Below, one piece after another: positions 1-26,490 of a stretch of 64,000 nt of DNA (its first letter is position 1; the number at the start of each line of letters is the position of its first letter). Location of the stretch: positions 914 through 64,913 of the forward strand of contig JBGAJM010000010.1 of NCBI GenBank assembly GCA_044224925.1, in the 5' to 3' direction. Origin of the DNA: Candidatus Kapaibacterium sp. Its GTDB lineage: Bacteria; Bacteroidota; Ignavibacteria; Kapaibacteriales; Kapaibacteriaceae. Position numbers and translations under genes: made by a program. The notes under the pieces were generated by a model. That model saw only the letters and a program-made list of their open reading frames with translations, made no database searches and was not told where the DNA came from.

Positions 1-1320
1 GCCATCGATCAGGTCGTACTGACTGCGATGGGCCTCGTCAGCCACAACGACGATGTTGCTCCGGTCCGACAGTAACGGCATTCGGCCGCCCTTTTCATCG
101 GCAAGGAACTTCTGGATCGTCGTGAACACCACACCGCCGCTGGCCACTTTGAGTCGCGTGCGCAGATCGAGCACTGATGCGGCCTGCACGGGCGTTTGAC
201 CGAGCAGTTCATGACAGCGCTGGAACTGACCGAACAGTTGATCATCGAGATCATTTCTATCGGTAAGTACCACCACCGTCGGATTCCGCATCTCCGGGTT
301 CTTGGCGATCTGTGCCACATAGAACAGCATCGTAAAGCTCTTCCCCGATCCTTGCGTGTGCCACACAACGCCAATGCGCTTGTCGCCCTTCTTCCCTTCG
401 GGCATCGAGCCCGTCCAATACGTGCCTTCCGATCCTTCACGTCCTTCCCACATCATCCCACTTGCGCGCACCGTCTCTTGAACGGCAGCTTGCACGGCGT
501 GATACTGATGATAGCCGGCAATGATCTTGTGCACGCTGGCCGTGTCGGTGTCCTCTTCAAAGGCAATGAAGTTGCGCACTAGATCAATGAAGCGCGACGG
601 CTCGAACACACCCTTGATCAACGTCTCCAGTTCCAGCGCCGTTGCCGGCGGTTCGGTGCGACCATCTACTGTGCGCCACACCTTGAACCACTCTTTGTTT
701 GCTGTGAGAGATCCGATGCGCGCACTCGTCCCATCGGAGATCACCAGCAGTTCGTTGTAGCGCATCAGCGACGGGATCTCCTGCTTATACGTCTGCAGTT
801 GATCGAAGGCCTTCCAGATGGTGGCGCTCTCATCCGTTGCGCTTTTCAGTTCGAGGGTGGCAAGGGGCAAGCCATTTACGAAGACCACTACGTCGGGTCG
901 ACGATTCTTCCCTGCATCGATCACCGTGAATTGATTCACAGCGAGGAAGTCGTTGGCGGCAATGTTGGTGGCATCGATCAGGTAGATCGTCTCTCCCGAG
1001 ATCGTCCCATCGGCGCGGCGGCTCTCCACCGTTACGCCATCACGCAGCATGGCATGAAAGCGTCGGTTGGACTCCGTCAGCGACGTCGTCTCTGTCCGCA
1101 ATACCTTGCGAAGCGCCTCTTCGATCACTTCTTCACGCGCCGTCGGATTACATCGGTGCATGGCCGACCGCAAGCGATCGACCAGCACTACATCTTCATG
1201 CGATGCGCGCTCGGCATGCGGCATATCCGGTGCAATGTCGGGACCGAAGAGAACTTCGTAACCCAGATCAGTGAACCATTCGAGGGCGGCGGATTCTATG
1301 TGTGATTCGTTAAGGGTCAT
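1..1320 (-). CDS. hsdR: Type I restriction enzyme R subunit HsdR, N-terminal part (start codon at 1320; gene runs off the window start)
   Basis: Reverse-complement translation from 1320 reads MTLNESHIESAALEWFTDLGYEV..., the canonical HsdR N-terminus, followed by nuclease and helicase motifs (e.g. VVVADEAHRSQY). No complete ORF appears in the track because the stop lies outside the window. Confidence 0.85.
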   Translation of the reverse strand, partial: MTLNESHIESAALEWFTDLGYEVLFGPDIAPDMPHAERASHEDVVLVDRLRSAMHRCNPTAREEVIEEALRKVLRTETTSLTESNRRFHAMLRDGVTVESRRADGTISGETIYLIDATNIAANDFLAVNQFTVIDAGKNRRPDVVVFVNGLPLATLELKSATDESATIWKAFDQLQTYKQEIPSLMRYNELLVISDGTSARIGSLTANKEWFKVWRTVDGRTEPPATALELETLIKGVFEPSRFIDLVRNFIAFEEDTDTASVHKIIAGYHQYHAVQAAVQETVRASGMMWEGREGSEGTYWTGSMPEGKKGDKRIGVVWHTQGSGKSFTMLFYVAQIAKNPEMRNPTVVVLTDRNDLDDQLFGQFQRCHELLGQTPVQAASVLDLRTRLKVASGGVVFTTIQKFLADEKGGRMPLLSDRSNIVVVADEAHRSQYDLIDG

Positions 1321-1326
1321 AATGGA

Positions 1327-1980
1327 TCAAAACTCAGATCGATGTTTCTTGATATACTCGATGAAGAGCGCATTGATGTCATCTGGGTATGCAAAGAACG
1401 CATTGTCTAATGCCTCCCACCTATGCATGTCTTCGATATTGCGAAACGCAATGTTCTCTCTCAGAGTTTGCTCTACGGGTATGCGCTTGCTAGGGAACAG
1501 TTCATTTGCCTGATGAACGATGTGTGCAGCTTTGTGCGCCCCAATCTCATGCAGTGCATCAACGGCTTGATGGGCGTAGCACCCATATCCATTGGTGTAG
1601 TACTGATTGAATCCACCATTCATGACATCTGCAACAAGCGACGTCACATACACCAACCGTTTCTGCGGCTCAGTAAGTCGGTCCATTCTTCTTCCATAGG
1701 AGCTCAACTCATCGACGAACGTCTCGATCTCCATCATGCTGGCATTCTGATCCTGCGCACGCAATAACGCATCGAGGTTGTCCATCCTTGAGGCTGTGCT
1801 TTTCGATGTTGGTGTGCGCTTTAGCGTTTCGATGATATTGCGAACGAAAGACCCCATGCCCTCACTCCTTGAATGATCCTCTCCACCGCTGGAATACCGA
1901 GACCCCAGCGCGAAATACAAAAACACTATGAGCGATCCGATCACCCCGCTCGCAACAATCCAATTTATGCCGTTTTTCAA
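1327..1980 (-). CDS. DUF4375/DMP19-like domain protein with an N-terminal TM helix (possible DNA-mimic family)
   Basis: 217 aa with a hydrophobic N-terminal helix and an NGGFNQYYTNGYG motif that I associate with the DMP19/DUF4375 family. Sits 7 nt after the hsdR start. Confidence 0.4.
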   Translation of the reverse strand: MKNGINWIVASGVIGSLIVFLYFALGSRYSSGGEDHSRSEGMGSFVRNIIETLKRTPTSKSTASRMDNLDALLRAQDQNASMMEIETFVDELSSYGRRMDRLTEPQKRLVYVTSLVADVMNGGFNQYYTNGYGCYAHQAVDALHEIGAHKAAHIVHQANELFPSKRIPVEQTLRENIAFRNIEDMHRWEALDNAFFAYPDDINALFIEYIKKHRSEF

Positions 1981-2300
1981 AACCAGTTCTCGTCATATGT
2001 GTGCATTACTTCGACACGTCTCCGTCCTGGATCGACTTCAATGTACGTCCCCTTGCTGTCTTCCATTCCTCGCGGCCGTTTGCTGACGCTGATGTAGATC
2101 TTCTGGATTCCGTTATCCTCTGGCGGTCCGATCAGCACATATGCGCCCGTCCGTTCGAGCTCCTTGCGGGCGCGAGCCTCAGCAAAAAGCGATCGAGGAA
2201 ACACAAGTCCGATCCCGCTCCAGTTCGATTTCTCGATCGTGCGGATCCCGCCCGGATCACCGGTGGGTAGGAAGATGCGATTGGAGTAAGGTTTGGTCAT
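1977..2300 (-). CDS. small hypothetical protein (about 107 aa from the internal start MTKPYS)
   Basis: ORF 1977..2420 is truncated to the internal ATG at 2300 so that it does not overlap the DUF4411 gene. Overlaps the DMP19-like start by 4 nt. No domain recognised. Confidence 0.3.
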   Translation of the reverse strand: MTKPYSNRIFLPTGDPGGIRTIEKSNWSGIGLVFPRSLFAEARARKELERTGAYVLIGPPEDNGIQKIYISVSKRPRGMEDSKGTYIEVDPGRRRVEVMHTYDENWF

Positions 2301-2344
2301 TGAAATGTATCTGGGTGCAAACGATGAAGGGTAGCAAGGCAGGG

Positions 2345-2824
2345 TTACAAAACAAAACGCGCACGCTCCCTTCGAAGCATCGTGTATGGGGTCATAAACT
2401 CGATACCTAGTCCTATGCATACGTTAGGGATCTTGATTCTCTTCCGTGAGTCAGCCGCTGCTTCGTGTGTCACCACTATGCATGATTCACAGAGTGCATG
2501 GGCAACGAGAAAGTAGTCAGCGACTTGGAAAAAGGTATGTATAGCAGCAGGCTCGAAGTTCTGTCCGGTTACCCAATTTGCTACATGGCCCAAGTGCGGC
2601 ATTGTGCGTGCGTCGGTTTTCCGGTACAGAAGTTCTCCGTGCGTCTTTGACCAATCACAGAGCTCATCAGCACCAACGTTGATCTCGTCGGCAACCTTGT
2701 CGACACTGTATACAAGTCCTTCGCCATTCTTTACGAGTATCCATTCCCAGAAGGCAGGACAGAAGTCGAAACCATAGTGAAGGTTCTTTGCTTGGATAAA
2801 GACGTTGGCATCGAGCAAGTACAT
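2345..2824 (-). CDS. DUF4411 family PIN-like nuclease
   Basis: N-terminus MYLLDANVFIQAKNLHYGFDFCPAFWEWI matches the DUF4411 signature. Its start overlaps the stop of the upstream ImmA/IrrE gene by 1 nt. Confidence 0.7.
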   Translation of the reverse strand: MYLLDANVFIQAKNLHYGFDFCPAFWEWILVKNGEGLVYSVDKVADEINVGADELCDWSKTHGELLYRKTDARTMPHLGHVANWVTGQNFEPAAIHTFFQVADYFLVAHALCESCIVVTHEAAADSRKRIKIPNVCIGLGIEFMTPYTMLRRERARFVL

Positions 2825-3975
2825 TACAACAGCACTCCCAGTTCACGCGCAGCAGTTTGAAATGTACTCGGCTTTCGAATTCCGAGCATTCGGTACGCAT
2901 CACGAAAGAGTGTCTGTCCTTCCAACGCACTTGAGCATACAGCACGTGCGAACCGCCCACCTACTCTACTTTGAAGAGTCCGATAGAAATCACCACCTGA
3001 ACCGCCGGCGTCTATGTCACGCAGGCGCGATATCTCGACACCGTAGGCATCCTGGAATTGCGATCGACTCAAGAGTTGTGCATCGAACATACTTCGCAAC
3101 ACAACCAAGGTGCTCACTTTGAACACGCGGGCCAATCGTTGCACCTCTGTTTCAATGTCGGCATCCATTCGGTACTCTTCTATCAACATTGCTCGAGGGA
3201 CAAGGAACTCCGCAGCGACAGCATTGCACCAGCGCTCGATCACTCCATCAGGGACCGAAGCAAGATCAGAATCCGATACACCGCTCTCACCGAGCCAGAC
3301 GTGCGCCAATTCGTGGACAATGGTGAACATCTGTGCCGATGTGCTATCGGCCGCATTGACAAATATGAGTGGAGCATACGGATCGGAAAGAGCGAAACCG
3401 CGGAACTCGTCAACGCGAAGCGTACGCGTGGTGTTATTTTCAACGATGGAGCTCGACATCAACATCACACCGGCCTCCTCCGTAGCTAATCTCAATGCAC
3501 GCAAGGCATCCGTCCAGTTTGGGGCGGACCGACGCTTTGCAGCAGTAACGCCAAGAGTGCTACGCATTGAACGAACAACAGCTTCAATAGGCGTTGTTAG
3601 CGTAACGCTGTTCACGAATTCAAGGGGCGAGTGCCCATGAATACGTGCATAGTCTCGGTACCACTCCTGTCGCTGTTGACAGATATAGATGGTATCGAGC
3701 AGATTCGGGCTTGGCCTACTTCTACCACCATTCGTGACAACTCTGAAGTCCGCAATCGGCAAAACCTCTACGGGCGGTCTGTCGAGGAAGAGAAAGCCAA
3801 TGGGCACATGAACAGCTTTGGCAAATTGCTCTAGCTGCCGAAGCGTTGGGAGCTCGGACCCAGATTCCCAATTCATGAGATGCGGAAATCGATGCTGCAA
3901 TGCATGCGCGTCACTCCCCGAGCGTTCTCGCGCCCATTGCAGCATTTCCGGGTGTACTGGTACTCTTGATATCAC
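2824..3975 (-). CDS. ImmA/IrrE family metallo-endopeptidase with N-terminal XRE-type HTH
   Basis: HEXXH motif in HELAHVWLGE; N-terminal HTH-like region (LPTLRQLEQFAKAVHVPIGFLF). This is the classic partner of DUF4411. Confidence 0.7.
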   Translation of the reverse strand: MISRVPVHPEMLQWARERSGSDAHALQHRFPHLMNWESGSELPTLRQLEQFAKAVHVPIGFLFLDRPPVEVLPIADFRVVTNGGRSRPSPNLLDTIYICQQRQEWYRDYARIHGHSPLEFVNSVTLTTPIEAVVRSMRSTLGVTAAKRRSAPNWTDALRALRLATEEAGVMLMSSSIVENNTTRTLRVDEFRGFALSDPYAPLIFVNAADSTSAQMFTIVHELAHVWLGESGVSDSDLASVPDGVIERWCNAVAAEFLVPRAMLIEEYRMDADIETEVQRLARVFKVSTLVVLRSMFDAQLLSRSQFQDAYGVEISRLRDIDAGGSGGDFYRTLQSRVGGRFARAVCSSALEGQTLFRDAYRMLGIRKPSTFQTAARELGVLL

Positions 3976-4782
3976 TTTTCAACTACGTGAGCAAAGCTCT
4001 CTTGAGTGTTTGTTGATTGCGAGTTACAATCTTGGACTCGTGTGCGAAAGATACGAGAGTTGTGATTCTCAATCAGCCTGAACTCACTTGGTTCACCTAC
4101 AGAAAGGAGGATGCGTGTTATATATGACCTTGGCCATGCGTCTTTGATAGCTCTAGACCCAATGGATCTGCGCTTCAGCTCTGGTTCATACACTCCTTCC
4201 CCAACTCCTTCTTTGGTTCTCAGAAGTATCGAACTGGATTTGACCCGCCGGCAAACACATGCCAGTTCGCGTGTGTTGTGCCTACAGCCTTCCAAGACCC
4301 GACATGAATGATACTTCTACCCTGTACAGTCGATGGAGTAAATCTCACGATCACTCCTTCATACAAATCGCCTCCACCATTGGCATTACGAATGTAGACT
4401 ACGCAGCAGGCTCCTTTGAGTATTGCCTGCCTTCTTAGGCCGATCTTCCAATGCCGTGTGACGTTCATTGATCCGTGCGGTTTCCCAGGCAACGGACTAC
4501 GCGTGAAGACCGCTATGCCTGAGCGTCCATTGGCAAGTGTGGCCAGATTTGCCGTTGCCTGTGGTCTCGATGAGAGGCTTCTCGCCACTACTGTTTCCTG
4601 CAGTGAGTGAAAATGACCATCAAGTGCAAAGACCACTTCTGTCCATAACATTGTCCCCGCGTAATCATCATCTAAACGCGAGTATCATAGAAGAAAAATA
4701 TCCTCAACATTGCTCATAGGAATCGAATTCACGGCGCAAGACGATTCGAAGTCGACGACTTCCGCAAAGGACTGGTTGAGGG

Positions 4783-6572
4783 TCATTGCTGCACGACGGC
4801 GATTCCCATCTCCGTCAGGAAACGAGACGGTGCTTTTAAGTATCCAAAGTATCTATCTGAATATGTTATCGTCAGCGCTTCCACCGCACGGGTAAATTCA
4901 ACAAAACAATTCCGGCGTTCCTCTCTCATTTCAAAACTGTCGTCTCCTTTTCTCGTTGCCGCCCAACTTGGAAGCTGATCTTCAACTAAGCCGATGAGGT
5001 AGACACGCTTGAACTCCAAGCCCTTCGAACTATGTATCGTGAGGCAGCGAACCGCGTCCTTCGGCACTGGCGCCTCCTTTGAGCGGAGATCGAACTCCTG
5101 TAGCAGCGAGTGAAGACTTACTTCGCTCTTCCCATACTGCTGAATGACCTCCTGTTGTAGCAGCTTCCAAACTTCTCTTTCCTCCTTATACTCGTCAAAC
5201 ACGGTGTCATCGGTAGTGTGGTGAATCTGAAGTGCGTCAAACCACGCAAATGTAGAGTCGATGAATGCCCAGTGGTCAATACGCTCAAGCAGAGTGCTTT
5301 TCGTTTGCTCAAGGAATGCCCGCGAAAGTGCCGAAACCGTTTCTTGGCTGAGCACCGCTTCAAGCCAGCCCCGCAAATAGTCACCGCTTTGGAATGATGA
5401 TGCAGCAACTACATCCTCCACCCGGATGTTGCTTCCTTCGAGTGAATATGCTGCGCGCACTCAGCGATTACGGAGTCCAACAGTTTCTTGCTCCTACCGA
5501 GAACCACTGAATGGATCCTTACCACCAAGGGATTTTGATTAAACTCTGAAACAATACAATCTACCTCATGCCCAAAATCAGCAAATGGAAACACTCTCAA
5601 TTGTGAATCGTTTGTTGATACCTTGTGTGCTTTAAGGCGCTCCTTACCCTCAGATCGATCAAGATTATGAATAATCAGATTGTTGGCTATCTCGATGACA
5701 GCAGGCGGGCAGCGATAGTTTTCAGGCAGCTGCACAGTTCTCATCGAGAAGCGCTTCAAAAGGTCCTGAAGTCGTTTGGGGTTAGCGCCGTTCCATTGGT
5801 AAATCAGCTGATCGTCGTCAGCGACGACGAACAAGTTCGGCCTGTCTGTCGAAACGAGTGAGCAGAGGAGCCGGAATTGTGTTTCGTTGGTATCTTGGAA
5901 CTCATCAACACACACGTAGCGATAGACGCGTTGAAACTGTTTCGCGATTGCGGGACGCTCTTCCAAAAGTTGAACAGCCAGGCCGATGAGCGAAGCAAAA
6001 TCCAAATGGTTCCCCTTTATGAGTTCAACGCGGTAAGCATTGAACATTTGGGTTAGAAACTCTTTGTGCTGATGTGCGCCTAGCCGCTCGGCCAGTTCCT
6101 TCGGGTTCGAGCACTCAGCAAGCATCTTATCAATGACCGGCAATACGTTGGCAGCTCCTGAGATTGTTTCTGCAACTTCGTCACTGAGCATTCTCATCGC
6201 TTCAGTGGCCACCGCTTCACGGTCCGCTTGCTCGACCAAGATTGTGAAGTCTGGCCTCAGTCCAATGTGGTGTCCATGCTGTCGCAAAACCTCAGCTGCA
6301 AATGAGTGGAAAGTTGTCAGAAGCGCCCTGTCCCTTCCGGTTTTCAACAGCCCCGCAAGACGGGTTCTCATTTCTCCAGCCGCCTTGTTCGTGAAGGTGA
6401 CTCCAAGTATTCGAAAGCGCTCCCCAGAGGTGTCGTTCAGAAGGCGCGCGATGCGATAAGTCAGCACGCGGGTCTTTCCTGAGCCAGGACCAGCAAGTAC
6501 GAGTAACGGCCCATCGTTCCACTGCACGGCTTCGAGCTGCTTTTCATTAAGCGTTGTGAGGTCGATGCTCAT
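4783..6572 (-). pseudogene. gajB: UvrD-like SF1 helicase (GajB-like), split or frameshifted into ORFs 5409..6572 (N-terminal, 387 aa) and 4783..5460 (C-terminal, 225 aa)
   Basis: N-terminal ORF has Walker A LAGPGSGKTRVL and motif II DEFQDTN. C-terminal ORF has UvrD motifs V/VI (LTIHSSKGLEFKRVYLIG, VEFTRAVEAL). The two ORFs overlap by 52 nt in different frames. Confidence 0.6.
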
Positions 6573-8275
6573 AGTCGTGCGTTGTTCACAGCGGTTGTAA
6601 TTGCGGTTTGAATTGTTGCAGGCAGACCCGGTGAGCCACCCTGCTGCGCGGCTTCCACGGCAGCGATTGCGAGGTGGGGTTTAGAGGTAGAGCTAATCGC
6701 CATGCGGATAGTCTGATCTGTGTGCATGGGAGTCCCGGCTGCCGCAGTGATATTAGCCCGTTGTGGCGCACGAACGGCGGAATCGTAAACGGCTGAATAA
6801 CCGTGAGCCCACATTGCGTGCTCAAGGTCCTTCTCGGCCAAGACGGTGAGTCTCTGGGCTTCCTTTGCTGCGCCGCTGAGCCCGCGAGCGGTCATTGCAT
6901 ATGTCTGCCCGGCTGGGTCTCCGTCCGCAAGGACGTGCCACTCAATGCCAAGGTCGGTCGCTAATTTAATCAGAGTAGCGAGACCGCACTGGACGAATTC
7001 CAGACAACACACTCCCTCTAGTTCGAAATCGAAATTGAGAAGGCGGGCTGCTTCAGGAAGAAACCAAAACTCACTCTCACCTTCCACAAGCAGCCAAGAT
7101 TTGGCGAAGAGGAGATTTCCTCGCTTGGCGCGCACGTGATATGCAATCTTGCGTTCATCATCAGGTGTGAGCGTCCCAGGCTGGACTCGGAATACCTCAA
7201 CCTTTCCTTCTTTGCGGGCGAGGCGGCGAACCGCACTGAGCGGGACAGCGGCAAGTAACTCGCCAGAATGGGTCGCGATAATCTTCTGCCCCTTGATCGA
7301 ACTCAGCACCTTCCACAAGGAGCGCACCGCCGATGGGTGGAGGTGAGATTCAGGCTCCTCAATAGCTAGGAGTGGTTCGGAATCTGGGTCGAATGCTTCG
7401 GCGAGCCGTGCATTGAGAAACGCTTCAAAAAGGAACAAGACCGAGAGACTTTGGGTTCCTGCGCCATGTTGGTTGATAGGCAACTTTGCTCCGCTCTTCG
7501 CTGCGAGCTTCACTTGCGTCTTGCTGAGCATATCGAAGATGCGCGCCGGAAATGCCTCTACACTTACGAGATCGTCCGCAGCTAACGGAACGAGTCCGCC
7601 AGTCTTCGCGACTTGTACCTTCACTTCGTTGAACGGCGTATGTGAATCGAGAACAGACTGGTTTATTGCCTCGATCTGCTCCTCCAGTAAGATCCGGGTC
7701 TCTTTATCAATTTGGGGATTCTTCGTGAAAGGTCCCCAAAACGGTGATCGGCTTTGGAAGTGCTGACCAGCGTCACGGACGGCAGCCAAAAAGAAGGCCG
7801 GGTTCAATTGCTGAAGCTCAGATACAATTCTCGGATTCTTTGCGGTCGTGAGTTCATTGTTGTTCAGGTCGAGAAATGACCATTCCAAGGTGAAGTCCTT
7901 TATTGCCGGGTCGTAAGCTGAAACGACCCGAAAACGAACCACCTGCTTATTATCAGCCCGGATTTGCACGGCCTTATCTAGTCCTTGCACAATTGCATCT
8001 GGCCACTCATTTTCCATTGATTCTACAAAGTTGAAATCCATCTCGATCGGCAGGGCGGAACTCGGTTCAGGCCTATCCGCTGTGAGATGAAAATCGTATT
8101 CACCAAACGGGACTACCTTTCTGGAAAGGCTTCGGCTCAAGCAGGTATGGACTGCTTCCAAGACACTGGTTTTGCCCGTGTTGTTTTCGCCGATTAGTAC
8201 TGTGCACTGGTCCAAAGGAATCACAAGCTCTTCGATTCCCCGGAAGTTCTTAATGGTGATTTTGGTTAGTAACAT
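6569..8275 (-). CDS. gajA: OLD-family ATP-dependent endonuclease (AAA ATPase + TOPRIM), GajA-like
   Basis: Starts [17 protein letters not shown] with P-loop GENNTGKTS; C-terminal TOPRIM motifs LLVEGESEF and ADGDPAG. The 4-nt ATGA overlap with the downstream helicase matches class 2 OLD/Gabija architecture. Confidence 0.65.
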   Translation of the reverse strand: MLLTKITIKNFRGIEELVIPLDQCTVLIGENNTGKTSVLEAVHTCLSRSLSRKVVPFGEYDFHLTADRPEPSSALPIEMDFNFVESMENEWPDAIVQGLDKAVQIRADNKQVVRFRVVSAYDPAIKDFTLEWSFLDLNNNELTTAKNPRIVSELQQLNPAFFLAAVRDAGQHFQSRSPFWGPFTKNPQIDKETRILLEEQIEAINQSVLDSHTPFNEVKVQVAKTGGLVPLAADDLVSVEAFPARIFDMLSKTQVKLAAKSGAKLPINQHGAGTQSLSVLFLFEAFLNARLAEAFDPDSEPLLAIEEPESHLHPSAVRSLWKVLSSIKGQKIIATHSGELLAAVPLSAVRRLARKEGKVEVFRVQPGTLTPDDERKIAYHVRAKRGNLLFAKSWLLVEGESEFWFLPEAARLLNFDFELEGVCCLEFVQCGLATLIKLATDLGIEWHVLADGDPAGQTYAMTARGLSGAAKEAQRLTVLAEKDLEHAMWAHGYSAVYDSAVRAPQRANITAAAGTPMHTDQTIRMAISSTSKPHLAIAAVEAAQQGGSPGLPATIQTAITTAVNNARL

Positions 8276-9579
8276 GGCAGTGAACTCTCGGGTGTAACCC
8301 TCATCTCCCCACTCAACAACTTCGGTAAAATCGTTTCACGCAGGGTTGCGAGGGTACGGGATTGTTGTTTGTTAATCTTGGTTTGGGCGTCCAGCTTGCC
8401 CACCGCCCGCTGGAAGGCCTCTTGAATTTCGATTGGCGGCAAAATGATGGGCATGCTGTTAACTGAATCGAAAGTGATTTGAGGGAAAGTACCTGATCGA
8501 GATTCCGCTTGCAATTGGAATTCATCTAAGGTTTCCTGTGCCGTTAGGATGCGGTACATTAGGCGTGGATGTATCGCTTCAGAGCCTCGGATGACCATAA
8601 ATTTGGTTGAGACCACGTAGTCACTGGAATCGAAGTCCACGTATGCATAACGCTTGTTTGCGGGGCGGATTTCGCTAAAGAGGATGTCGTCGGGACGAAT
8701 GGATTTCTTGGCTTGCCCTGGCAAACCGGTGTGTTGGCTCCGCTTTTCGTGGAGGAAGTCGCCTTCCAACACATCGCCCGTATTGATGAAAACCACCTCG
8801 AGTGTGCGCTTGAAATCAAACGTGATGGAAACGTTGTTCGCAATGTCTCCAAGCGTGCAAGCTTGCCAACCTTTGGGGATGTGGCCGAGGCTTGAGTCTT
8901 GGAAAGAGTCGGGGAAGAGGGCTGCGGTGGTTGCGTCCATGCCGGTGGGTTGGCGGCCGTCGAGTTTGGCGCGAACGGGGTCGAAGTCTACGAACCAGCT
9001 TTTGAAGAGGGCGCGCGCCATTGATTCAAGGGTCTCGTTCATTCGGCGGTTCAACTCGATCTTGTCGTCGAGGTCGCCGAGGATCTTGGCGATGGCTTTT
9101 TGCACTTGGATTGGAGGAATTGGAAAACGAAGACGTTCCAAAGTCTGAATATTGATGTTGTCCTGTACACTTCCAGTTGCTTGGTGCTGAATACGTTTCC
9201 GCATAAAACGGAACATGTACTCAATGAACTTAACATCGGCCTTAAGGGGATCTGCGATGAAACCAACGACACTATCCGGGAAGCATGCAGGAAAGGTCAG
9301 GATCGCTGTCTCGGCGATGTTCGCCGCAATCGTGATGCACATTGTTCCTGAAGGCCATAATCGACTCTGTGCCAGCCCTACTTCCGAATAGGTCTGTGAA
9401 TACGATGTAATCTTGCCATTTGATGCCTTAACATCACCTGTTTGGATGAATGGATAAGGCCCTCCATAAAGGTGCTCCGCGTAGCGGGGCCGATAACGAG
9501 AGCGGCCTCTCCCAACCTCTCCGAGTTCATGCAAACTCACCAATTGCCAGCCGTTCGGGCACTCAAACTCCAAAACCAA
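8266..9579 (-). CDS. hsdS: Type I R-M specificity subunit HsdS
   Basis: 437 aa with two target-recognition-domain halves and conserved HsdS repeat regions ([10 protein letters not shown]..., [12 protein letters not shown]). Overlaps hsdM by 17 nt. Confidence 0.8.
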
Positions 9580-11086
9580 ACCCCTTCAAGTTGTTCTTGA
9601 TCTCGGACTCGAGGCGGGCAGATTCGGCAAACTGCTCGTAGAGTGTTGTTGTGAGGCGTTTCATCTTTTCATCGAAGGGTTCACCATCATCCTCAACTGT
9701 TTCTGCACCAACATATCGGCCGGGTGTGAGGACGTGCCCGTGCGATGCGATCGTCGCGAGTGATGTCGATGCGCAGAAGCCGGCAACATCAGCGTAGTCC
9801 TTGCCGCCTTGCCAAGCTTGTAGTGTTCCGACGATCTTGGTGATGTCTTCGGACATGAGTTCACGGTTGACGCGCGACGTCATGGTGCCCATCTTGCGTG
9901 CATCGATGAAGAGCACTTCGCCTTTGCGTTGCTTGTTCTTGTTGATGAACCAGAGGCAGACGGGGATCTGCGTACTGTAGAAGAGTTGGCCGGGGAGGGC
10001 GACCATGCATTCGACGAGATCGTGTTCGATGAGTGACTTGCGGATCTCGCCTTCGCCGCTTTGATTCGAGCTCATGCTGCCGTTCGCAAGCACGAAGCCG
10101 GCCTTGCCGCGGGGACCCAGGTGATGGATGAAGTGTTGCACCCAGGCGAAGTTCGCATTGCCCTTTGGTGGCACACCATACTTCCATCGCACATCGTCAT
10201 CCTTGCGGAACCAATCGCTGTCGTTGAATGGTGGATTGGCGATGACGAAGTCGGCCTTGAGATCCGGATGCACATCGCGACGGAATGTGTCGGCATGCTC
10301 CGGTCCAATGTCGGCCTCGATCCCGCGGATCGCAAGATTCATGATGGCAAGTCGACGCGTGGTGGCGTTGCTCTCCTGTCCGTAGATGCTGATGTCGCCG
10401 ATCTTCCCGCCATGCGCCTCGACGAACTTCTCGCTCTGCACGAACATGCCACCGGATCCGCAACACGGATCGTAGATGCGACCCTTGTAGGGTGCGAGCA
10501 TCTCGACCAACAAGCGCACGATGCATGATGGTGTATAGAACTGTCCGCCGTTCTTCCCTTCCGCGCTTGCGAACTGCATGAGGAAGTACTCATAAACGCG
10601 ACCCAGCACGTCCTTCGAACGATTCTCTGCATCGCCAAGACCGATGGTGCTCACGAGATCGATCAACTCACCAAGTCGATGCTTGTCGAGAGCGGGTCGG
10701 GCATAGTCCTTTGGCAGCACACCTTTCAGTCGCGGATTGTCGCGCTCGATGGCCACCATGGCATCATCCAAGAACGTCCCGATCGTCATCTGTCGTGCAT
10801 TCGCCTGCAGATGCGACCACCGCGCCTCCTTCGGCACCCAGAACACCCCTTTGGCGCGATACTCATCGGCATCTTCCGGATTCGCATCCGGTTCATTCGT
10901 GAGTTGCGTGAACAGTTCTTCGAAGGAATCGGAGATGTACTTCAGGAAGATCAGACCAAGCACCACGTGCTTGTACTCTGACGCATCCATGTTGCTGCGC
11001 AGCTTGTCGGCCGCCTGCCACAGCGTGGCTTCAAAGCCGACGTTGGCGGTGGAGGAAGAGGAGGAGGATTTCTTGGATTTGGCCAT
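9563..11086 (-). CDS. hsdM: Type I R-M N6-adenine DNA methyltransferase HsdM
   Basis: HsdM_N region ([32 protein letters not shown]); SAM and catalytic motifs including VIANPPFN. Confidence 0.85.
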
Positions 11087-11109
11087 AGAGCAATTTACTT
11101 CTCGGGAGA

Positions 11110-11736
11110 TTACTCTTCAGCGATCATTCGTTTCAGTTCGGAAACACATTTGGGACCGATCAGGAGTCCCTCCAACTGTTCGCCGTTGGAATACGACCCA
11201 AGCCGATTCAAGGCTTTCGAGACATAACCTTCGATGACGTTTGTGGCTACTGCTGCGATTGGACCAAGACCAAGTGAAGTGGTGGCTGCCAACGACATAA
11301 CATCCTTACCCAACACTGAGACCAAGACCTGGGTTAGGGGTGCAACACTCATTTGACCTTTCGACAATAGTGCCATCTCCTTTTTACCGCCCGGCGTGTA
11401 CTGTACCGTCACCGTTGATTGCTTGAGAAGCTTTCCATGCGTGATCATCGCCGGGGTACGAAGTTCTAAACTGACGGACAACCTCACTCTGCCATCCTTT
11501 AACAAGGATCTCTCAACAGCCGTGATCCAGAAGCTGTAGTCCTCTCCTACTTCGCCACAACGAAATGTAGGACAGCTTTTAAGTGAATGTTCGATTCCTG
11601 ACTTGATGTGACGCAGTTCTAGCTTCTCTTCAAAAGCGGTCTTCAAGTCGATCTTGATCATTCCGTCTTGCGCACAAAGCGGTGCGACAATCGGACTCAT
11701 GAACAGGAACAGACTGATAAGTACGATCTTTTTCAA
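11110..11736 (-). CDS. secreted hypothetical protein with signal peptide
   Basis: N-terminal [23 protein letters not shown] signal sequence; no recognisable domain. Confidence 0.5.
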
Positions 11737-11948
11737 TTCCAGGGTCCTTTCGATACTGAGCGAATTCTCACTCAGTGTGATTGCTCGTGGTTACTACAAC
11801 TCATTGCTATTGCGCCACATCTCGCGTCATCCGAACAAACGTCTCGCAACGGACAGTTCAATGCCGGCATACACGCTACCGTACCTCCCTCAATTCGATT
11901 CAGCGTCATCAACTGCTTCTCAAGAGCCCACAACACAACAACCGAACA

Positions 11949-13862
11949 TCATCTACAGATCACGAGCGGCTTTACGAAGACGCCGGCACCGCGCTGCACG
12001 CGCACGTGGTACAGGCCGGAGGCCCAACGTGCGAGGTCCAGACGGGTGACTCCATCGGCATCGACCGTGAACGTGCGAACAACCGATCCATCCAGGGCCA
12101 TGATCCGCACGTCGTCGCCTGTGCGGAGGCCATCAAGAACAAGATCTTCGTCTGAGCCAGCCGGATTCGGATAGATGCTGATCTGCGCGTCTGCGACATC
12201 CGGCTCTTGAACAGAGACGGGTTGATTCGTACATGTGCTCGACGGTCCGGGATCTGCAAGGAACAGTTTCCATGCCCCTTCGGCGGCCGCAATGGCGAAC
12301 TCGTATTTGGTGTGCTGCTCGAGCGCGTTGGGCGAGGTTCCGAAACTGCTGGCGCCGTGCATGACGATCGCAGCACTATCGGACACATCGACACCATTGC
12401 GGAAAACCCGCACACCCTTTGCCGAGTCTTGATAGACGTAGATACCCCAATGCTCCGATCCATTTCCGGTGAAGAGCTCAAAGAGGTTGTAGCATGTAGC
12501 GTTCGACGGCTGCGTGGTCGCAAGAACCCAGTCGTTGAGTATGTGAAGCCGACCGTTACAGTATTGTGCGTAGAGGTAGGAGTAACGTCCGCGGGCAGGC
12601 ATCAGCGTACCTGGCCATTCACCGGATGTGAAGTCTCCATCGATGTCCATCACACCCGAGCAGGCGTTGCGGATGGAATCTCCGCTTCCATACCGGATCA
12701 CGCATGTGTCGTTCCGAAGGACGCCAGAGAATGCGCTAGGCTCAGTTGTAAGACCCACGATTCCTGACGTTGGAATGTAGCGCTGATCCTGACGTGTGAC
12801 GGTGCCATTCTCCGTAAGCATCGCTTGTCGGTAGTACGGCTCCTGGATCAGACCTGTGCCATCGTCCTTACAATCCAGCGCAACGGTGGTCGACGGAGTG
12901 CGCTCGACCGGATCGCTGCCGATCTCCATGAAGAACAAGCCGACCGATGCCTTGATCCCAAACTCATAGATCGTATGCGTCGTGCCATGACATGGCGAAG
13001 TCGAGAAGCCGAAGCGTACGCCAACGACGATGGCGGTATCGTCGGTAACATCTTTGCCGTTGAGTTCCACAACCACCGGACGCGCCGTATCGTGGTTCAC
13101 CTTGATCTTCCAATTCTCACGACCGTTGCCGGTTGAAAAGCCGAACACGTTATAGCACGTCTTCTCATACGGACCATTGCCGATCCCCCAGTCGTTCATG
13201 AGGTACATGATCTGCGACTTCGGACAGTAGTCCAAGTAGAGTTTTGAGAAACGGCCGAGGAGCGGCGTGATCCCTTCCCACTCTTGTGGTCTTCCAGGTC
13301 GGGACCGTGTGAACAGCCCATCGATCGTGTGCATCGAGTCACAAGCGAGATCGGTTGGCCAACCGTAGCCGCCCGGCGGATTCGTGACGCTTGGCTCTCG
13401 CTCGACGATCCGCGGCGTGCGTGAGAGATCGACGGGAGGACCGTTTTGCGTGGTGGGATCCGGATCGAAGGAATTCACGGCCGTGTCGAGAAGAGCACGC
13501 TTGGCGACAACCGTAGCGAGAGCTCTGCCCCATGGTCCGTCACTGATGCAGAACGAGATCGTCACGTCGCCGATTGGCGTCTGCGCCGGAAGCGTGAACG
13601 AGATGCTCTTCGCCGTAACGCCGATCACCGTTGCTTCAGTCGTCCCCACGTAGACACGAGCCAGATCCTTGATCGCCGGGGAAACGATCCCACTTCCCTC
13701 GACCACCAGTGTTCCGCTCCCTTCGATGCCAATGGTCGCCGGCTCGCAACGGACGGTGAGTTTCTCGAACATCGTATCGCATTGTGCTTGTAGCACATGA
13801 TCTGAAAGTCCGAACAGAACTGCAGCGATCAAGCTGCAACGCAAGAGGAGGTCACGTGTCAT
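11949..13862 (-). CDS. T9SS C-terminal-domain secreted protein containing an internal tandem domain duplication
   Basis: Signal peptide and a C-terminal Por sorting domain (ISIYPNPAGSDEDLVLDGL...VFVKPLVICR). Two homologous ~200-aa internal repeats (LMNDWGIGNGPYEKTCYNVFGFSTGNGRENW... / ILNDWVLATTQPSNATCYNLFELFTGNGSEHW...). Confidence 0.65.
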   Translation of the reverse strand: MTRDLLLRCSLIAAVLFGLSDHVLQAQCDTMFEKLTVRCEPATIGIEGSGTLVVEGSGIVSPAIKDLARVYVGTTEATVIGVTAKSISFTLPAQTPIGDVTISFCISDGPWGRALATVVAKRALLDTAVNSFDPDPTTQNGPPVDLSRTPRIVEREPSVTNPPGGYGWPTDLACDSMHTIDGLFTRSRPGRPQEWEGITPLLGRFSKLYLDYCPKSQIMYLMNDWGIGNGPYEKTCYNVFGFSTGNGRENWKIKVNHDTARPVVVELNGKDVTDDTAIVVGVRFGFSTSPCHGTTHTIYEFGIKASVGLFFMEIGSDPVERTPSTTVALDCKDDGTGLIQEPYYRQAMLTENGTVTRQDQRYIPTSGIVGLTTEPSAFSGVLRNDTCVIRYGSGDSIRNACSGVMDIDGDFTSGEWPGTLMPARGRYSYLYAQYCNGRLHILNDWVLATTQPSNATCYNLFELFTGNGSEHWGIYVYQDSAKGVRVFRNGVDVSDSAAIVMHGASSFGTSPNALEQHTKYEFAIAAAEGAWKLFLADPGPSSTCTNQPVSVQEPDVADAQISIYPNPAGSDEDLVLDGLRTGDDVRIMALDGSVVRTFTVDADGVTRLDLARWASGLYHVRVQRGAGVFVKPLVICR

Positions 13863-13872
13863 GGGTTGTAGA

Positions 13873-15699
13873 TCAGCGTTGAATGAGCAGTTTGAAGGTC
13901 GTCGTTCCTTGCGGCGTCATGATCCGGCCATAGTAGACACCACGTGATAGATCCTGTGTATCCAGACCGATGCGGTTCAAGCCCTCGTGCGCATCGACAA
14001 CTTCTATGGATCGAACCCGTGATCCCGTTGCATCGATCAGCTCAAGCGTGGCTTTTCCAGGAGCTTTCATCAACACGATCACTTCGGCGCGATCCGCGGT
14101 TGGTGTTGGTTGGACGATCGCGGATTGTTGGTTCGTATAGGAGTCGGGGTCGATCTCCACGCCCGTCACCACCGGATCGCACGAATACACGACCGAACGC
14201 GAAAGGAGTGTGTCGTTCGCTACGTAGACGATCTGAAGCTTCTGCGAGCCCATGGTTGGATCGCAGTCGGGCAGCGTAAAGTAGATCGTACAGCACTCAT
14301 CCTCCGAGATCTCCGAGATCAACCGACCATACAGACTGTCAAGCTCCGCACCGCGATCGATCTGAAACACCTTACCGCGCGGCGCGGCGGCGACGAATGA
14401 GCGCATCGTATCGAGCGCTTTCAGTTCGTTCGGATCGTTCTTGAATCCTAGGGCCACGAGATAGATCGGAATGTTCGCTTGTGTGATCGCGTCCACCAAT
14501 TGAGCGGGTCGTATCGTCGATCGATTGTCGACGCCATCCGTCATCGCGATCACAAACCGGTTTGGACTCGAGTTCACGCGTGCCTTGGCAAGACCAACAC
14601 TCAGCGCGTCATAGAACGCCGTATTCCCATCGGCGTTGAGATCGTTCACCGTTGTGATCAATTCCTGCTTGTTCGACGTCCAGTCCTTGCGTAGCTCCAC
14701 CACGTCGTTGAATCGGATCACACATGCACTATCACTGGGATGCATGCGGTTGATGAAGCGCGTGAGTGCGCGCTTGATCGCATCCATACGCGTGATCGTC
14801 TCGTTCTCGTACGAGATGTCGCTTCGCATACTGCCAGAGTTATCGACCACCAAGACCGCTGACATCTCATTGCCCGCCTCGCGTTGGTCGCATCGAATGG
14901 AGTCAGGACAAATGAAGCGTCCGTTCACAGCGATGCCGAGCTGGTTTGCTTCGCGGAGGCGATTCACTCGACCGTCGACCGCATTGGTATCGCTTGCGAG
15001 AATGGACGCGTCGATCTTCAGCCCTACCACCCTTCCGCTGCTCACCACCTTTTCGACATTACAAAGGTTGATGTCTTCCGGCAGGATCTCTTCGACGGTC
15101 ACTTTCAGTCCACCGCAATTGTCCTCATATCGCGCCACCGTCCGCTGCTGCGCGATGTTGAACGTTGAATCCAGGATCTGGAACACGAATGCCGAACCCG
15201 TACCGGCCTTCTCGATCTGATACCGGTGGATCGAACGGTTCAATGGTTGCGCGGGGAGCGGCTCTCCGTTGACGCGAAAGCCGAGGTTCTTTCGGAAACT
15301 GATCTCGAACAACGGCGTGAGTCCGAGCGACTTCGGCGGGAAGGCCCACACGGTCGAATCTCCCACCCAATGTGGGATCTCGACAAATGGCGAGGTAAGG
15401 ATACGTTTGGGTGGCCAGCGAAATGCATCGATCTCCTCTTGGGGTACATCGTACACCCAGGCTGCATCGACACCGTGGCAATCCGTGAACTGCGGCCACT
15501 GGCTATATGTGCCTTCTACCGTAATCCGGTAGGTGGCCGTTGGCCTGGTCGGCGGCGAGGAGATCGCAATGCCGGACGTAGCATCAAGTCGGGTTGTGAA
15601 GGGGAATTGCGCGAGTGCCAGCGTGGGCACCATCGCGAACACCGTCATGCAGATCAAAAGTTTGCGGACCAAGTCCATGCCACCACGTACAACCGTCAC
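13873..15699 (-). CDS. von Willebrand factor A domain protein with T9SS C-terminal sorting domain
   Basis: MIDAS motif in LVVDNSGSMRSD...TAFYDAL...MTDGVDN; signal peptide; C-terminal T9SS-like domain (ATLELIDATGSRVRSIEV...GVYYGRIMTPQGTTTFKLLIQR). Confidence 0.65.
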   Translation of the reverse strand: MTVVRGGMDLVRKLLICMTVFAMVPTLALAQFPFTTRLDATSGIAISSPPTRPTATYRITVEGTYSQWPQFTDCHGVDAAWVYDVPQEEIDAFRWPPKRILTSPFVEIPHWVGDSTVWAFPPKSLGLTPLFEISFRKNLGFRVNGEPLPAQPLNRSIHRYQIEKAGTGSAFVFQILDSTFNIAQQRTVARYEDNCGGLKVTVEEILPEDINLCNVEKVVSSGRVVGLKIDASILASDTNAVDGRVNRLREANQLGIAVNGRFICPDSIRCDQREAGNEMSAVLVVDNSGSMRSDISYENETITRMDAIKRALTRFINRMHPSDSACVIRFNDVVELRKDWTSNKQELITTVNDLNADGNTAFYDALSVGLAKARVNSSPNRFVIAMTDGVDNRSTIRPAQLVDAITQANIPIYLVALGFKNDPNELKALDTMRSFVAAAPRGKVFQIDRGAELDSLYGRLISEISEDECCTIYFTLPDCDPTMGSQKLQIVYVANDTLLSRSVVYSCDPVVTGVEIDPDSYTNQQSAIVQPTPTADRAEVIVLMKAPGKATLELIDATGSRVRSIEVVDAHEGLNRIGLDTQDLSRGVYYGRIMTPQGTTTFKLLIQR

Positions 15700-15880: not shown

Positions 15881-16786
15881 TCACCCCTCAAAATAGTCAC
15901 TGTCGATCTTCTTGATCTCGATCGTCCGGGCAATCGACACACCAACGTTATGCTCGATCATGAGTTCTGCCAACCGAGCTCCATCAATGAGGATCACTTT
16001 CTGAGAGATAGCGCTGGCGTACTCGTGGGCACCTTTTGAGAAATCAGAGGTGGTTATCATGATCCCTTTGTTTGCCTGTTTTCCGGCAAGAGCACCGACG
16101 AAGGCCTGCACGTCCCCACGACCTACGTTACTCGACCACCGCTTTGCTTGGATGTAGACGACGTCAAGACCCAATCGGTCCTGGTTAATGATGCCATCAA
16201 TACCTTCATCGCCTGATTTCCGAGTGACGGTTGAGGCTTCCTCACGCGAACCACCGTATCCCATTGCCGAGAGCAGGTCCACGACCAACTGTTCGAACTG
16301 ATACGGATCCATCCTCGCCATTTGTCCAATTAGTTCTGCGGCCAGTGAAAGGTTGAGTTTCTCGAAGGCATCGGAGATCAACTCATCCGGTGTCACCTCG
16401 GAATCGTCATCGGTGGGGGCTTCATTCTTGGAGGACCGCTCCGATCGATCTCGGAAGGCAACAAATGACGGGAACTGACTCAAGTAGCGGACCGTGATGC
16501 GATCCGGCGGCGACTGTAGCACCCTGCGACCTTCATCGCTGATCGAGTACACAGCTCGTTTCTCTGAAACAATGAGCCCAGCCTGCTTGAGATGCGTTAG
16601 GCACCAACCGATTCGGTTTGCAAAGAGCGGTGCGCGACGGCTCGGTAGCATCTCGGCGAGTTCCTCACTTGTGAGTTGATACTTCTCAGCCAAGCTCGTC
16701 CGTATCTGATTCGTAGAGGTCTCTCCCTTTATATCGATCAACTGAAGGATTGGGAGCATCATCGACTGAAAGTCGGGTATCGGCAT
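15881..16786 (-). CDS. mrr: Mrr-family type IV restriction endonuclease (Mrr_N winged helix + Mrr_cat)
   Basis: N-terminus MPIPDFQSMMLPILQLI...; catalytic PD-(D/E)xK region GDEGIDGIINQDRLGLDVVYIQAKRW. Confidence 0.75.
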   Translation of the reverse strand: MPIPDFQSMMLPILQLIDIKGETSTNQIRTSLAEKYQLTSEELAEMLPSRRAPLFANRIGWCLTHLKQAGLIVSEKRAVYSISDEGRRVLQSPPDRITVRYLSQFPSFVAFRDRSERSSKNEAPTDDDSEVTPDELISDAFEKLNLSLAAELIGQMARMDPYQFEQLVVDLLSAMGYGGSREEASTVTRKSGDEGIDGIINQDRLGLDVVYIQAKRWSSNVGRGDVQAFVGALAGKQANKGIMITTSDFSKGAHEYASAISQKVILIDGARLAELMIEHNVGVSIARTIEIKKIDSDYFEG

Positions 16787-16828
16787 TTGAGCTCAATGAT
16801 TGGTTGAGAACAATAGACAGGTCACTAT

Positions 16829-17290
16829 TTACAACAAATCCTCGCCGGTCAGCGCCATTTCCATTCTGTCCGCTTCTCTTGCACATTGCAGGATGGCGAA
16901 TCGGATCTCCGGCTTTGTCAAACCCACAGTTGGAAGTTCACAGACGACCGTGAATCCATCGTTCTCAACAATAGCACGAGCCATCGGCATTCCGGCATTC
17001 TGGTCCGCAAGAAACTCAACCTGTTCTTTTTCTGTCCTGCTCGGATCTACTGGGGCCGAATAACTGCGGAACTCTACCGACTTTTCGTTCAGTCTCCACA
17101 TAACGTCTTGTTTGCGGCCGTGGTCAAGAGAGACGCGAACCTTCGCTCGCATTACACGAAACGTCGCTGCCGGAAGCGCGCTGATCAGGCTCTCGAGCTG
17201 TTCATTCGTCATATGTCGCTCCATCATGTTCTTCATCCGTTCTGATGATCTCACGTTCCACATCGTCCGCTGCACGCGTAACCCGCTCAA
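16829..17290 (-). CDS. small hypothetical protein (130-153 aa), last gene of the PLD-SNF2 operon
   Basis: ORF overlaps the SNF2 gene stop. The likely start is an internal Met (17212-17227), giving a short overlap. No confident domain; weak resemblance to the YbjN/chaperone-like fold is speculative. Confidence 0.35.
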   Translation of the reverse strand: MSGLRVQRTMWNVRSSERMKNMMERHMTNEQLESLISALPAATFRVMRAKVRVSLDHGRKQDVMWRLNEKSVEFRSYSAPVDPSRTEKEQVEFLADQNAGMPMARAIVENDGFTVVCELPTVGLTKPEIRFAILQCAREADRMEMALTGEDLL

Positions 17291-24117: not shown

Positions 24118-24141
24118 GATAGGTGTGTCGCAGCAGCACGG

Positions 24142-24594: not shown

Positions 24595-24686
24595 CGCAGC
24601 ACCTGTCATCAGTGTTCCATGTTGCGTTCGAAGCGAACCTACGGGTGTGCGCACTGCGACTCCATGACTTTGATCATGCGTTGTCG

Positions 24687-25328: not shown

Positions 25329-25375
25329 AACCCCCTCATGTGTGTGTTGCTGTTGGGCGGCAAATGTAGTGGGCA

Positions 25376-26486: not shown

Positions 26487-26490
26487 CAAG

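Follow-up and report, generated by a model that had tools for sequence, protein, structure and literature searches.

A type I restriction-modification locus of Candidatus Kapaibacterium with a mosaic of stacked defence-type modules between hsdS and hsdR

A type I restriction-modification (R-M) locus was analysed at positions 1..11086 of a 64,000-nucleotide stretch of Candidatus Kapaibacterium sp. (GenBank assembly GCA_044224925.1, contig JBGAJM010000010.1, positions 914 to 64,913; hereafter the window). All of its genes lie on the minus strand, in the order hsdM-hsdS, then 6.9 kb of cargo, then hsdR. The hsdMS genes and hsdR form one type I R-M locus, with a mosaic of at least five modules at the hsdS-hsdR junction, and it is highly probable that this junction is a habitual slot, filled here with stacked, independently acquired modules of defence type. 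Read from hsdS, the slot comprises a Gabija-type pair (gajAB, with gajB inactivated), the small gene orf123, an ImmA/IrrE gene with its DUF4411 partner, a GIY-YIG/DUF4357 gene bearing a deletion and a DMP19-family gene abutting hsdR. The features of the locus are given below (aa, amino acids; nt, nucleotides); labels of the form L086 denote the related hsd loci with which it was compared.

hsdM, 9563..11086, minus strand: m6A methyltransferase subunit, 507 aa (Pfam N6_Mtase, E = 4e-107, and HsdM_N, E = 5e-28; PADLOC MTase_I, E = 2e-215)
hsdS, 8266..9579, minus strand: specificity subunit, 437 aa, TTG start (two stretches of Pfam Methylase_S; PADLOC Specificity_I, positions 10-428)
gajA, 6569..8275, minus strand: class-2 OLD-family ABC ATPase with TOPRIM nuclease, 568 aa, apparently intact (PADLOC GajA PDLC00094, 1-567 of 569, E = 7e-246)
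gajB pseudogene, 4783..6572, minus strand: UvrD-like helicase with a 133-nt frameshifting internal deletion between 5449 and 5448
stretch read as a fossil hsdR start, 4730..4786, minus strand: ATGACCCTCAAC..., overlapping the gajB stop by ATGA and reading MTLNQSFAEVVDF
orf123, 4220..4588, minus strand: 122-123 aa, most likely with a GTG start, belonging to a rare and uncharacterised family without a match in Pfam or PADLOC
5' stub of a 188-aa gene of the type seen in L107, 4131..4193, minus strand: about 21 codons, protein match to residues 1-21 only
HTH-ImmA/IrrE gene (Peptidase_M78/DUF955), 2824..3975, minus strand: 383 aa (Pfam Peptidase_M78, E = 1e-16)
DUF4411 gene, 2345..2824, minus strand: PIN-like nuclease, 159 aa, putative toxin partner of ImmA/IrrE (Pfam DUF4411, 1-159 of 159, E = 4e-52)
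GIY-YIG/DUF4357 remnant, 1977..2303, minus strand: 563-nt internal deletion, junction at about 2091..2087
DMP19-family gene, 1327..1857, minus strand: 176 aa, AGGAG upstream (Pfam DMP19, E = 2e-26, 93.3 bits against a cut-off of 25)
hsdR 5' part, 1..1320, minus strand: first 440 codons, the gene exiting the window (Pfam HSDR_N, E = 2e-50, and SWI2_SNF2)

HsdM and HsdS carry the domains of a type I system: HsdM joins an N6-adenine methyltransferase to an HsdM_N domain, and HsdS has two target-recognition domains. HSDR_N and SWI2_SNF2 were found in the 440 in-window residues of HsdR, which are 99% identical to the same part of the HsdR of L086, complete at 1039 aa. The closest solved HsdR was EcoR124I, with an E value of only 1e-19, and the system was not placed in any of the families IA-IE. 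The junctions are tight, the hsdS start overlapping the hsdM stop by 17 nt, the gajA start overlapping the hsdS stop by 10 nt, gajA and gajB sharing ATGA, and the DMP19 stop lying 6 nt ahead of the hsdR ATG. A preliminary description, made from the letters of the window and their open reading frames (ORFs), had placed hsdM and the overlapping hsdS at these positions, the start of hsdR at 1320 on the same strand about 7 kb away, and overlaps at the hsdS-gajA and gajA-gajB junctions, and each of these points was confirmed. With hsdS upstream of the cargo and hsdR downstream, on the same strand, the arrangement agrees with embedding as it is set out by Payne et al. 2024 (10.1101/2024.01.29.577857).

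The comparison with syntenic hsd loci, which had been proposed beforehand as a check, was made possible by L086, a locus from a Bacteroidota metagenome-assembled genome (MAG) found through its 85% identical DMP19 protein. Its order is hsdM, hsdS, an OLD-type ATPase gene (568 aa), an AbiC-like gene, a DUF4357 gene (285 aa), DMP19 and hsdR, so that the core is the same as in the window and the gene order, which would have spoken against an insertion had it been identical, differs. At the protein level, identities between the window and L086 were 96% for HsdM, 99% for HsdR (residues 1-440), 85% for DMP19 and 40% for HsdS, whereas the window GajA and the OLD protein of L086 were 20% identical and belong to unrelated cassettes. 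The OLD-type ATPase and AbiC-like genes stand in L086 in place of gajA, gajB, orf123, ImmA and DUF4411, and the variable segment measures 5.96 kb in the window (8265..2304), where L086 has 2.6 kb filled with unrelated genes. An identity of about 92% at the nucleotide level was limited to hsdM, the central region of hsdS (9102..8866), the first 212 nt of the DUF4357 gene (2303..2092) and 2086..1; homology is thus lost within hsdS and regained exactly where the DUF4357 gene starts (2303). The conserved centre of hsdS (window gene 8266-9579, L086 gene 5088-6377) is 91% identical over 237 nt and both target-recognition domains differ; since both have been exchanged, the two systems should recognise different motifs. 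Outside the hsd locus, no similarity was found between the window contig and the L086 contig. Cores that are 96-99% identical around entirely different cargo show that cassettes turn over on a short evolutionary scale.

The same junction was then considered across the lineage, for which one genome per species was scanned with HsdM, yielding 80 loci from many bacterial phyla and some archaea, with best HsdM identities of 76-77%. Among 53 same-strand loci, hsdS and hsdR were contiguous in only 6 and separated by cargo in 47, with a median gap of 1.6 kb and a maximum of 7.05 kb, which places the 6.9 kb of the window near the top of the range. Most cargo ORFs (90 of 120) share the strand of the hsd genes, and they often overlap their neighbours on both sides by 4 nt. 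The 120 ORFs fall into 99 sequence clusters and match 55 Pfam families (E <= 1e-5), including AAA_21/AAA_15, Schlafen AlbA_2, RhuM, SIR2_2, DUF3800, DUF1848, HerA, GmrSD_N, DUF4365, ThsB_TIR, Abi_C and HIRAN, and their PADLOC matches include HEC-01A, mad3, AriA, PtuA and Old. The cargo of these 53 HsdM-related loci held no homologue of DMP19, ImmA or DUF4411. The junction thus appears to be the habitual cargo slot of this hsd lineage, and the window modules gajAB, ImmA-DUF4411 and orf123 recur in the same slot elsewhere. The earlier view of an operon split by insertion was supported, with the caveat that cargo is the normal state of the lineage. In many loci (L001, L011, L028, L033, L049, L084 and others) 1-5 kb also lies between hsdM and hsdS, a DUF1016/YhcG gene in L001, and for this reason the hsdM-hsdS junction is a second cargo site, empty in the window.

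Upstream of hsdM there are two proteins sorted by the type IX secretion system (T9SS) (11949-15699), followed by further defence-type genes at 15881-27771, also on the minus strand:

Mrr, 15881-16786, minus strand: defence-type gene
SF2 helicase, 17202-20687, minus strand: overlaps the PLD-domain protein gene
PLD-domain protein, 20684-22780, minus strand: overlapped by the SF2 helicase gene and by the gene of the 446-aa protein
446-aa protein, 22777-24117, minus strand: overlaps the PLD-domain gene
AbiEii nucleotidyltransferase, 26491-27771, minus strand: defence-type gene

Because of the Mrr, helicase/PLD and AbiEii genes, the hsd locus belongs to a larger defence island. In such surroundings (Mrr, the helicase and PLD genes at 17202-22780, AbiEii), an orphan hsdMS and an unrelated hsdR could lie 7 kb apart as chance neighbours, with nothing split at all. 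This explanation is extremely unlikely and already contradicted, since hsdM and hsdR are co-linear in L086 at 96% and 99% amino acid identity, the genes of the locus share one strand and follow each other closely, and the identities of HsdM and HsdR to the window proteins co-vary over 56 loci (Spearman 0.73), as expected of partners and not of chance neighbours. The suspicion that hsdR belongs to another R-M system, raised in the preliminary description as a possible refutation, was answered by the same co-linearity and co-variation.

Within the slot of this single R-M locus, the gene next to hsdS encodes an OLD-family ABC ATPase fused to a TOPRIM nuclease, as in Gabija, with the Pfam domains DUF2813, AAA_15 and OLD-like_TOPRIM and with Walker A (GENNTGKT), EEPE and DGD motifs in its translation. 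The Gabija-like pair reported earlier therefore holds for gajA, with its full-length PADLOC match, but not for an intact gajB. A UvrD-like helicase gene is found just downstream, overlapping gajA, but it is split into two ORFs, 6572..5409 (387 aa) and 5460..4783 (225 aa), which match positions 2-374 and 416-632 of the GajB model PDLC00114. When three intact homologues of 637-640 aa were used in tblastn, the frame was seen to switch and residues 376-415 to be skipped, and the DNA alignment to intact homologues contains one clean gap of 133 nt at 5449/5448. No signal of relaxed selection was detected in gajB, where unique substitutions at otherwise invariant sites amounted to 3.3% versus 2.8% in gajA, so the deletion is either recent or an assembly error.

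Homologues of GajA with 80-91% identity occur in very different phyla, and matches on plasmids reached 40% identity at most, E. coli YbjD among them. Homologues with at least 64% identity lie directly 3' of hsdS in L001, L005, L095-L100, L104 and L106, with gajB abutting or overlapping hsdR wherever the contig extends that far. In all, 10 of the 11 contexts of this clade have the order hsdS, gajA-gajB, hsdR with overlapping codons. The HsdM partners in the gajA-carrying loci are 44-74% identical to the window HsdM, and GajA identity does not track HsdM identity, which argues that the cassette moves among hsd lineages and lands in the same place. The eleventh context is a stand-alone gajAB copy (L003/L004), with an 18-codon stretch, KLLSRELNVTPEN*LPCY, directly upstream of gajA (L003, about 2754-2807). 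This stretch is 72% identical to the C-terminus of the window HsdS and on that ground is a fossil hsdS end; the L003 pair was probably excised from an hsd locus.

The near-constant company of hsd genes raises another explanation, according to which the locus is a functionally integrated composite: GajAB of the DUF2813 type, and perhaps other cargo, would guard the type I enzyme and sense its inhibition, for example by Ocr, in the way that PrrC is activated when EcoprrI is inhibited (PMC12707154). The ten embedded contexts and the hsdS stub of the eleventh agree with this, as does the repeated return of the cassette to one slot beside HsdM partners of 44-74% identity. Additionally, Payne et al. 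2024 (10.1101/2024.01.29.577857) state that Ocr activates Gabija, propose that embedded ABC-ATPase systems respond to anti-defence proteins and discuss exactly this logic. Nevertheless, a slot with 99 clusters among 120 ORFs accepts almost anything, so that position alone is weak evidence of functional dependence, and GajAB relatives at 56-63% identity lie away from hsd genes. The window gajB is not only broken but also cut off from hsdR by modules that came later, so a composite, if it exists, is not maintained here. The guarding role is thus rather unlikely, and the reading of a habitual slot with independently acquired modules is preferred.

Downstream of gajB, the preliminary description had seen an 800-bp spacer of lower GC. 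This did not survive the analysis, as the segment (4782..3976) has a GC content of 0.486, not below those of DUF4411 (0.487) and DMP19 (0.48), and holds orf123 together with two gene stubs. Searches of the segment by blastn and tblastx against all fetched loci, and against plasmids, gave no match. With the 143-codon ORF as query, an exhaustive search of 1.84 billion protein representatives returned an orf123 family of 15 representatives at E < 1e-3, of 110-130 aa, with the conserved motifs GIAVFTR, TGxWK, VVIYxR, GRxxIH and NWxxFAGxxNPVRYF. The AlphaFold (AF2) model, a confident one (pLDDT 82.9, pTM 0.76), predicts a compact beta-rich fold; a fold search with the model gave no significant match, the best of the weak ones being PUA-like (ASCH, YTH, Lon-N/CRBN and the RsmE N-terminus; TM 0.3-0.5). 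The closest homologue, 123 aa long and 90% identical, is at L107 8001-8372, and in both loci with visible context, the window and L107, the family occupies the hsdS-hsdR slot. The order in L107 is hsdM, hsdS, AAA_13 ATPase, orf123, 188-aa gene, AbiC-like gene, DUF4357, T9SS hydrolase and hsdR. The hydrolase gene, between DUF4357 and hsdR (L107 10793-12928), encodes a protein of 711 aa that resembles alpha/beta-hydrolases and bears a T9SS sorting domain, and is apparently non-defence cargo.

Homology between the window and L107 (85% over 645 nt) starts exactly at ATGAsCCTCAAy, the ATGA of which overlaps the stop codon of the cargo gene ahead of it, and that gene differs, being gajB in the window and the AAA_13 gene in L107. 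The counterpart of the window stretch in L107 reads MSLNEAFAEVIDF, and the N-terminus of true HsdR proteins is MTLNESHIESAAL or MSLNESIVEDAAL. The position is the one at which the true hsdR starts after gajB, with the same ATGA overlap, in L001, L005 and L095. At the other end, the nucleotide homology stops about 40 nt into the 188-aa gene of L107. A wider identification of the spacer as degraded hsdR was rejected, apart from its first stretch of about 18 nt to 13 codons.

The ImmA/IrrE-DUF4411 pair named in the preliminary description was confirmed. The M78 peptidase with its HTH lies directly upstream of DUF4411, the two genes overlapping by 1 nt (TAATG), and the pair is a candidate toxin-antitoxin-like module by analogy with the one described in PMC5499597. 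Strong homologues of ImmA/IrrE number more than 8000, nearly all of them 383 aa long and some named XRE/HTH by NCBI; the matches of ImmA/IrrE to the PADLOC RmrA models are weak and partial (best E = 9e-15, model positions 164-276 of 363), and DUF4411 has no PADLOC match, RmrT models included. The pair is conserved in L087-L094, with homology in L087 covering window 3966..2345. In L091-L094 it is placed between hsdS and hsdR, with overlaps of 4 nt; in L089 and L090 it shares the hsdS-hsdR slot with an Abi_C gene, and in L087 and L088 it is found in a GmrSD/RhuM island.

The inventory of named cargo genes was recovered in full, but it had missed the GIY-YIG/DUF4357 remnant at 2303..1977. Window 2303..2092 corresponds to L086 8992..9203 and window 2086..1 to L086 9772..11857, where the gene is intact (285 aa, Pfam DUF4357). 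A stretch of 77 nt just upstream of ImmA in L087 (5835-5911) is 75% identical to window 2300-2224, the 5' end of the DUF4357 gene, the remnant of which lies in the window just downstream of DUF4411 instead; it may be another recombination scar or a chance conservation of the 5' end of the gene.

For the DMP19-like gene, membership of the family (Pfam PF14300) was upheld, whereas the start is most likely at 1857, matching annotated homologues of 176 aa, and not at 1980. The best match in the Protein Data Bank (PDB) was the Neisseria DMP19 (3VJZ), with an E value of only 0.32. The window protein has a pI of 5.96 and a net charge of -4 (24 D+E versus 20 K+R), and its L086 orthologue a pI of 4.89. 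The position 6 nt upstream of hsdR was seen only in the window and L086. The 85% identity between the two copies (window 1327-1857, L086 10001-10531) was recorded beside 99% for the flanking HsdR and 96% for HsdM; on this comparison, the DMP19 gene evolves much faster than its hsd neighbours. To see in its product a DNA mimic that targets HsdR or the HTH domain of ImmA is speculation.

Three of the cargo genes are lesioned, namely gajB, the 188-aa gene reduced to a stub and the DUF4357 gene. In this genome hsdMS, hsdR, ImmA-DUF4411, orf123 and DMP19 look intact, and function has probably been lost in the Gabija pair and in the DUF4357 gene. The multi-system defence island announced earlier is thus real as a series of defence-type modules, but with at least three broken cargo genes it is not a set of working systems.

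Fragments of hsdR 5' ends (31-170 codons) were also found inside the cargo of other loci. In L015, L022, L029 and L072 they lie upstream of an intact hsdR, and in L100 they lie downstream of gajB:

L015, 13962-14141: one hsdR 5' fragment
L022, 4276-4677: one hsdR 5' fragment
L029, 14651-14848: one hsdR 5' fragment
L072, 10689-10790 and 12181-12270: two hsdR 5' fragments
L100, 6646-6891 and 8380-8868: two hsdR 5' fragments, with a third hsdR piece truncated by the end of the locus, all downstream of gajB

These truncated hsdR 5' ends look like scars of serial cassette acquisition. In 1..11086 no transposase, integrase or recombinase domain was found, and the search for direct or inverted repeats flanking the cargo gave short matches at chance level, with no terminal repeats. 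Taken together, the scars at hsdR and hsdS ends, the L003 fossil and the lack of mobile-element signs suggest recombination anchored in the 3' end of hsdS and the 5' end of hsdR. Cassettes would be exchanged and stacked between hsd loci by recombination at these conserved ends, without integrase or transposase, leaving hsdR 5' stubs and hsdS 3' stubs as scars, in a process that may resemble homology-facilitated illegitimate recombination.

The insertion of a conventional mobile element, such as a transposon, an integron cassette or an integrative island, would explain the cargo differently. In L091-L094, the order hsdM-hsdS-ImmA-DUF4411-hsdR adjoins Tn7-like genes (TnsA-like, Mu-type transposase, TniB and TniQ), and the hsd locus with its ImmA-DUF4411 pair is itself Tn7-like cargo, so hsd loci do travel on mobile elements. 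After the hsd locus of L091-L094 come an AAA_15/21 ATPase gene, a patatin gene and a Multi_ubiq and ThiF (E1-like) pair, and since the same protein is found on at least 24 contigs, the whole arrangement looks like mobile defence cargo. Such an origin is very unlikely for the window cargo, the borders of which are hsd gene ends and not att-like sites, in a region free of the mobile-element domains and terminal repeats named above.

Several points weigh against the reading of a habitual slot with stacked modules, or leave parts of it weaker. The scan for sigma-70 promoters over 1-12000 gave 2 sites versus 8.3 expected from shuffled sequence, the intrinsic terminator scan over the same range gave 14 versus 11.4, both scans being uninformative, and the Bacteroidetes-type -7 motif TAnnTTTG had one match, inside gajB, and none in intergenic DNA. 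The window holds just 440 codons of hsdR, the integrity of which is taken from L086. The exchange mechanism is deduced from scars, some of them short (from 18 nt to about 13 aa in the window). Finally, the deletions of 133 nt and 563 nt could be assembly errors, the contig being possibly metagenome-assembled. Taken further, this last point would make the lesions of gajB and DUF4357, or the entire mosaic, the product of a mis-assembled metagenomic bin, and it is in keeping with the related sequences coming nearly all from MAGs and with gajB bearing no sign of long-term decay. Nevertheless, both deletions are clean single gaps in co-linear alignments of 80-92% identity, with no repeats at their borders, and the module borders coincide with start and stop codons and are common to the independent contigs L107, L087 and L086, a recurrence that chimeric joins would not produce. 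An assembly artefact is therefore quite unlikely.

With regard to expression, Rfam gave no match at E <= 0.1 over 1-12000. The common strand and the overlapping stop and start codons suggest that gajA and gajB would ride on the hsdMS transcript, and DMP19 and hsdR may form a distal expression unit. Classical type I systems transcribe hsdMS and hsdR from separate promoters; if the same applies here, the junction would be permissive for cargo. By analogy with PrrC, the embedded modules could add a second layer of defence, acting when restriction is evaded or inhibited. A bolder proposal, tentative and somewhat doubtful, combines an integrase-free hsdS/hsdR cassette slot, a DUF2813-type GajAB (11 of 11 contexts in the slot or derived from it) that acts as a guardian firing when the type I enzyme is inhibited, and an orf123 family, possibly PUA/ASCH-like, that serves as an undescribed accessory or defence factor.

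What the analysis adds is a comparison with a near-isogenic locus (L086), hsdR and hsdS stubs that are read as scars left by cassette exchange, a GajAB clade with a near-obligate tie to hsd genes, and the orf123 family. The scars, present in several unrelated loci, offer a testable mechanism for the exchange and stacking of cargo without a recombinase. Additionally, a Gabija subfamily that is almost always hsd-embedded and a rare family of 123-aa proteins, which occupies this slot in two loci, provide leads for experiments.

That type I R-M operons can harbour other defence genes is already established (10.1101/2024.01.29.577857; PMC11411939; PMC12707154). Payne et al. 2024 (10.1101/2024.01.29.577857) catalogued 17,432 non-redundant genes embedded in BREX, DISARM or R-M systems, with PrrC almost exclusively embedded. 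The window resembles their "guilt-by-embedding" (type I R-M, BREX, DISARM and Hma) in having same-strand cargo flanked on both sides by one multi-gene defence system. In both, the cargo is diverse and rich in ABC-ATPase/TOPRIM, PIN and GmrSD-type members, and PADLOC HEC and PDC models match the cargo of the related loci. The window differs in stacking at least five modules in one slot, three of them with lesions, and no discussion of hsdR or hsdS end scars at module borders was found in the passages of that work that were consulted. PrrC of EcoprrI (prr locus) and RloC share with the window an ABC-ATPase effector gene between hsdS and hsdR (PMC12707154), whereas the nuclease domain of the window GajA is a TOPRIM DNA nuclease and not an anticodon nuclease, and its partner is of the UvrD type; no PrrC or RloC model matched in the window (Pfam, PADLOC), and in location alone does it agree with these guardians. 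TgvAB of Vibrio cholerae VPI-2 is likewise a two-gene defence module inside an active type I R-M operon, proposed to complement the V. cholerae type I system (PMC11411939), but it is an experimentally tested, GmrSD-like type IV restriction pair, and the window cargo is different and known from sequence.

With Gabija (Bacillus cereus VD045) and the class-2 OLD proteins, the window shares an OLD-family ABC ATPase-TOPRIM gene followed by an overlapping UvrD-like helicase gene, full-length subfamily matches to PADLOC GajA/GajB, and PDB matches to GajA and class-2 OLD proteins that cover partial regions. The solved GajA is only distantly related (E about 1e-9, P-loop region only), the window protein being of a DUF2813/YbjD-like subfamily, and the window differs further in its disrupted gajB and in belonging to a clade that is almost always hsd-embedded. 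DUF4411 was described as a PIN-like toxin with HTH-DUF955 by Matelska et al. 2017 (PMC5499597), and the HTH-M78 peptidase fusion directly upstream, with overlapping codons, is the DUF4411.1 architecture of that work; to RosmerTA the likeness is a partial RmrA match of ImmA (E = 9e-15), with DUF4411 lacking an RmrT match. The Neisseria DMP19 blocks an XRE-type regulator and not a restriction enzyme (PMC3384305; PDB 3VJZ), and the likeness to it is at the level of the Pfam family only, the window protein being mildly acidic (pI 5.96) and the pairwise similarity insignificant (E = 0.32). The nesting of defence genes in type I R-M loci, known since PrrC and catalogued at scale in 2024, is thus the usual and already described state, and the window locus is a new, unusually stacked and partly decayed example of it.

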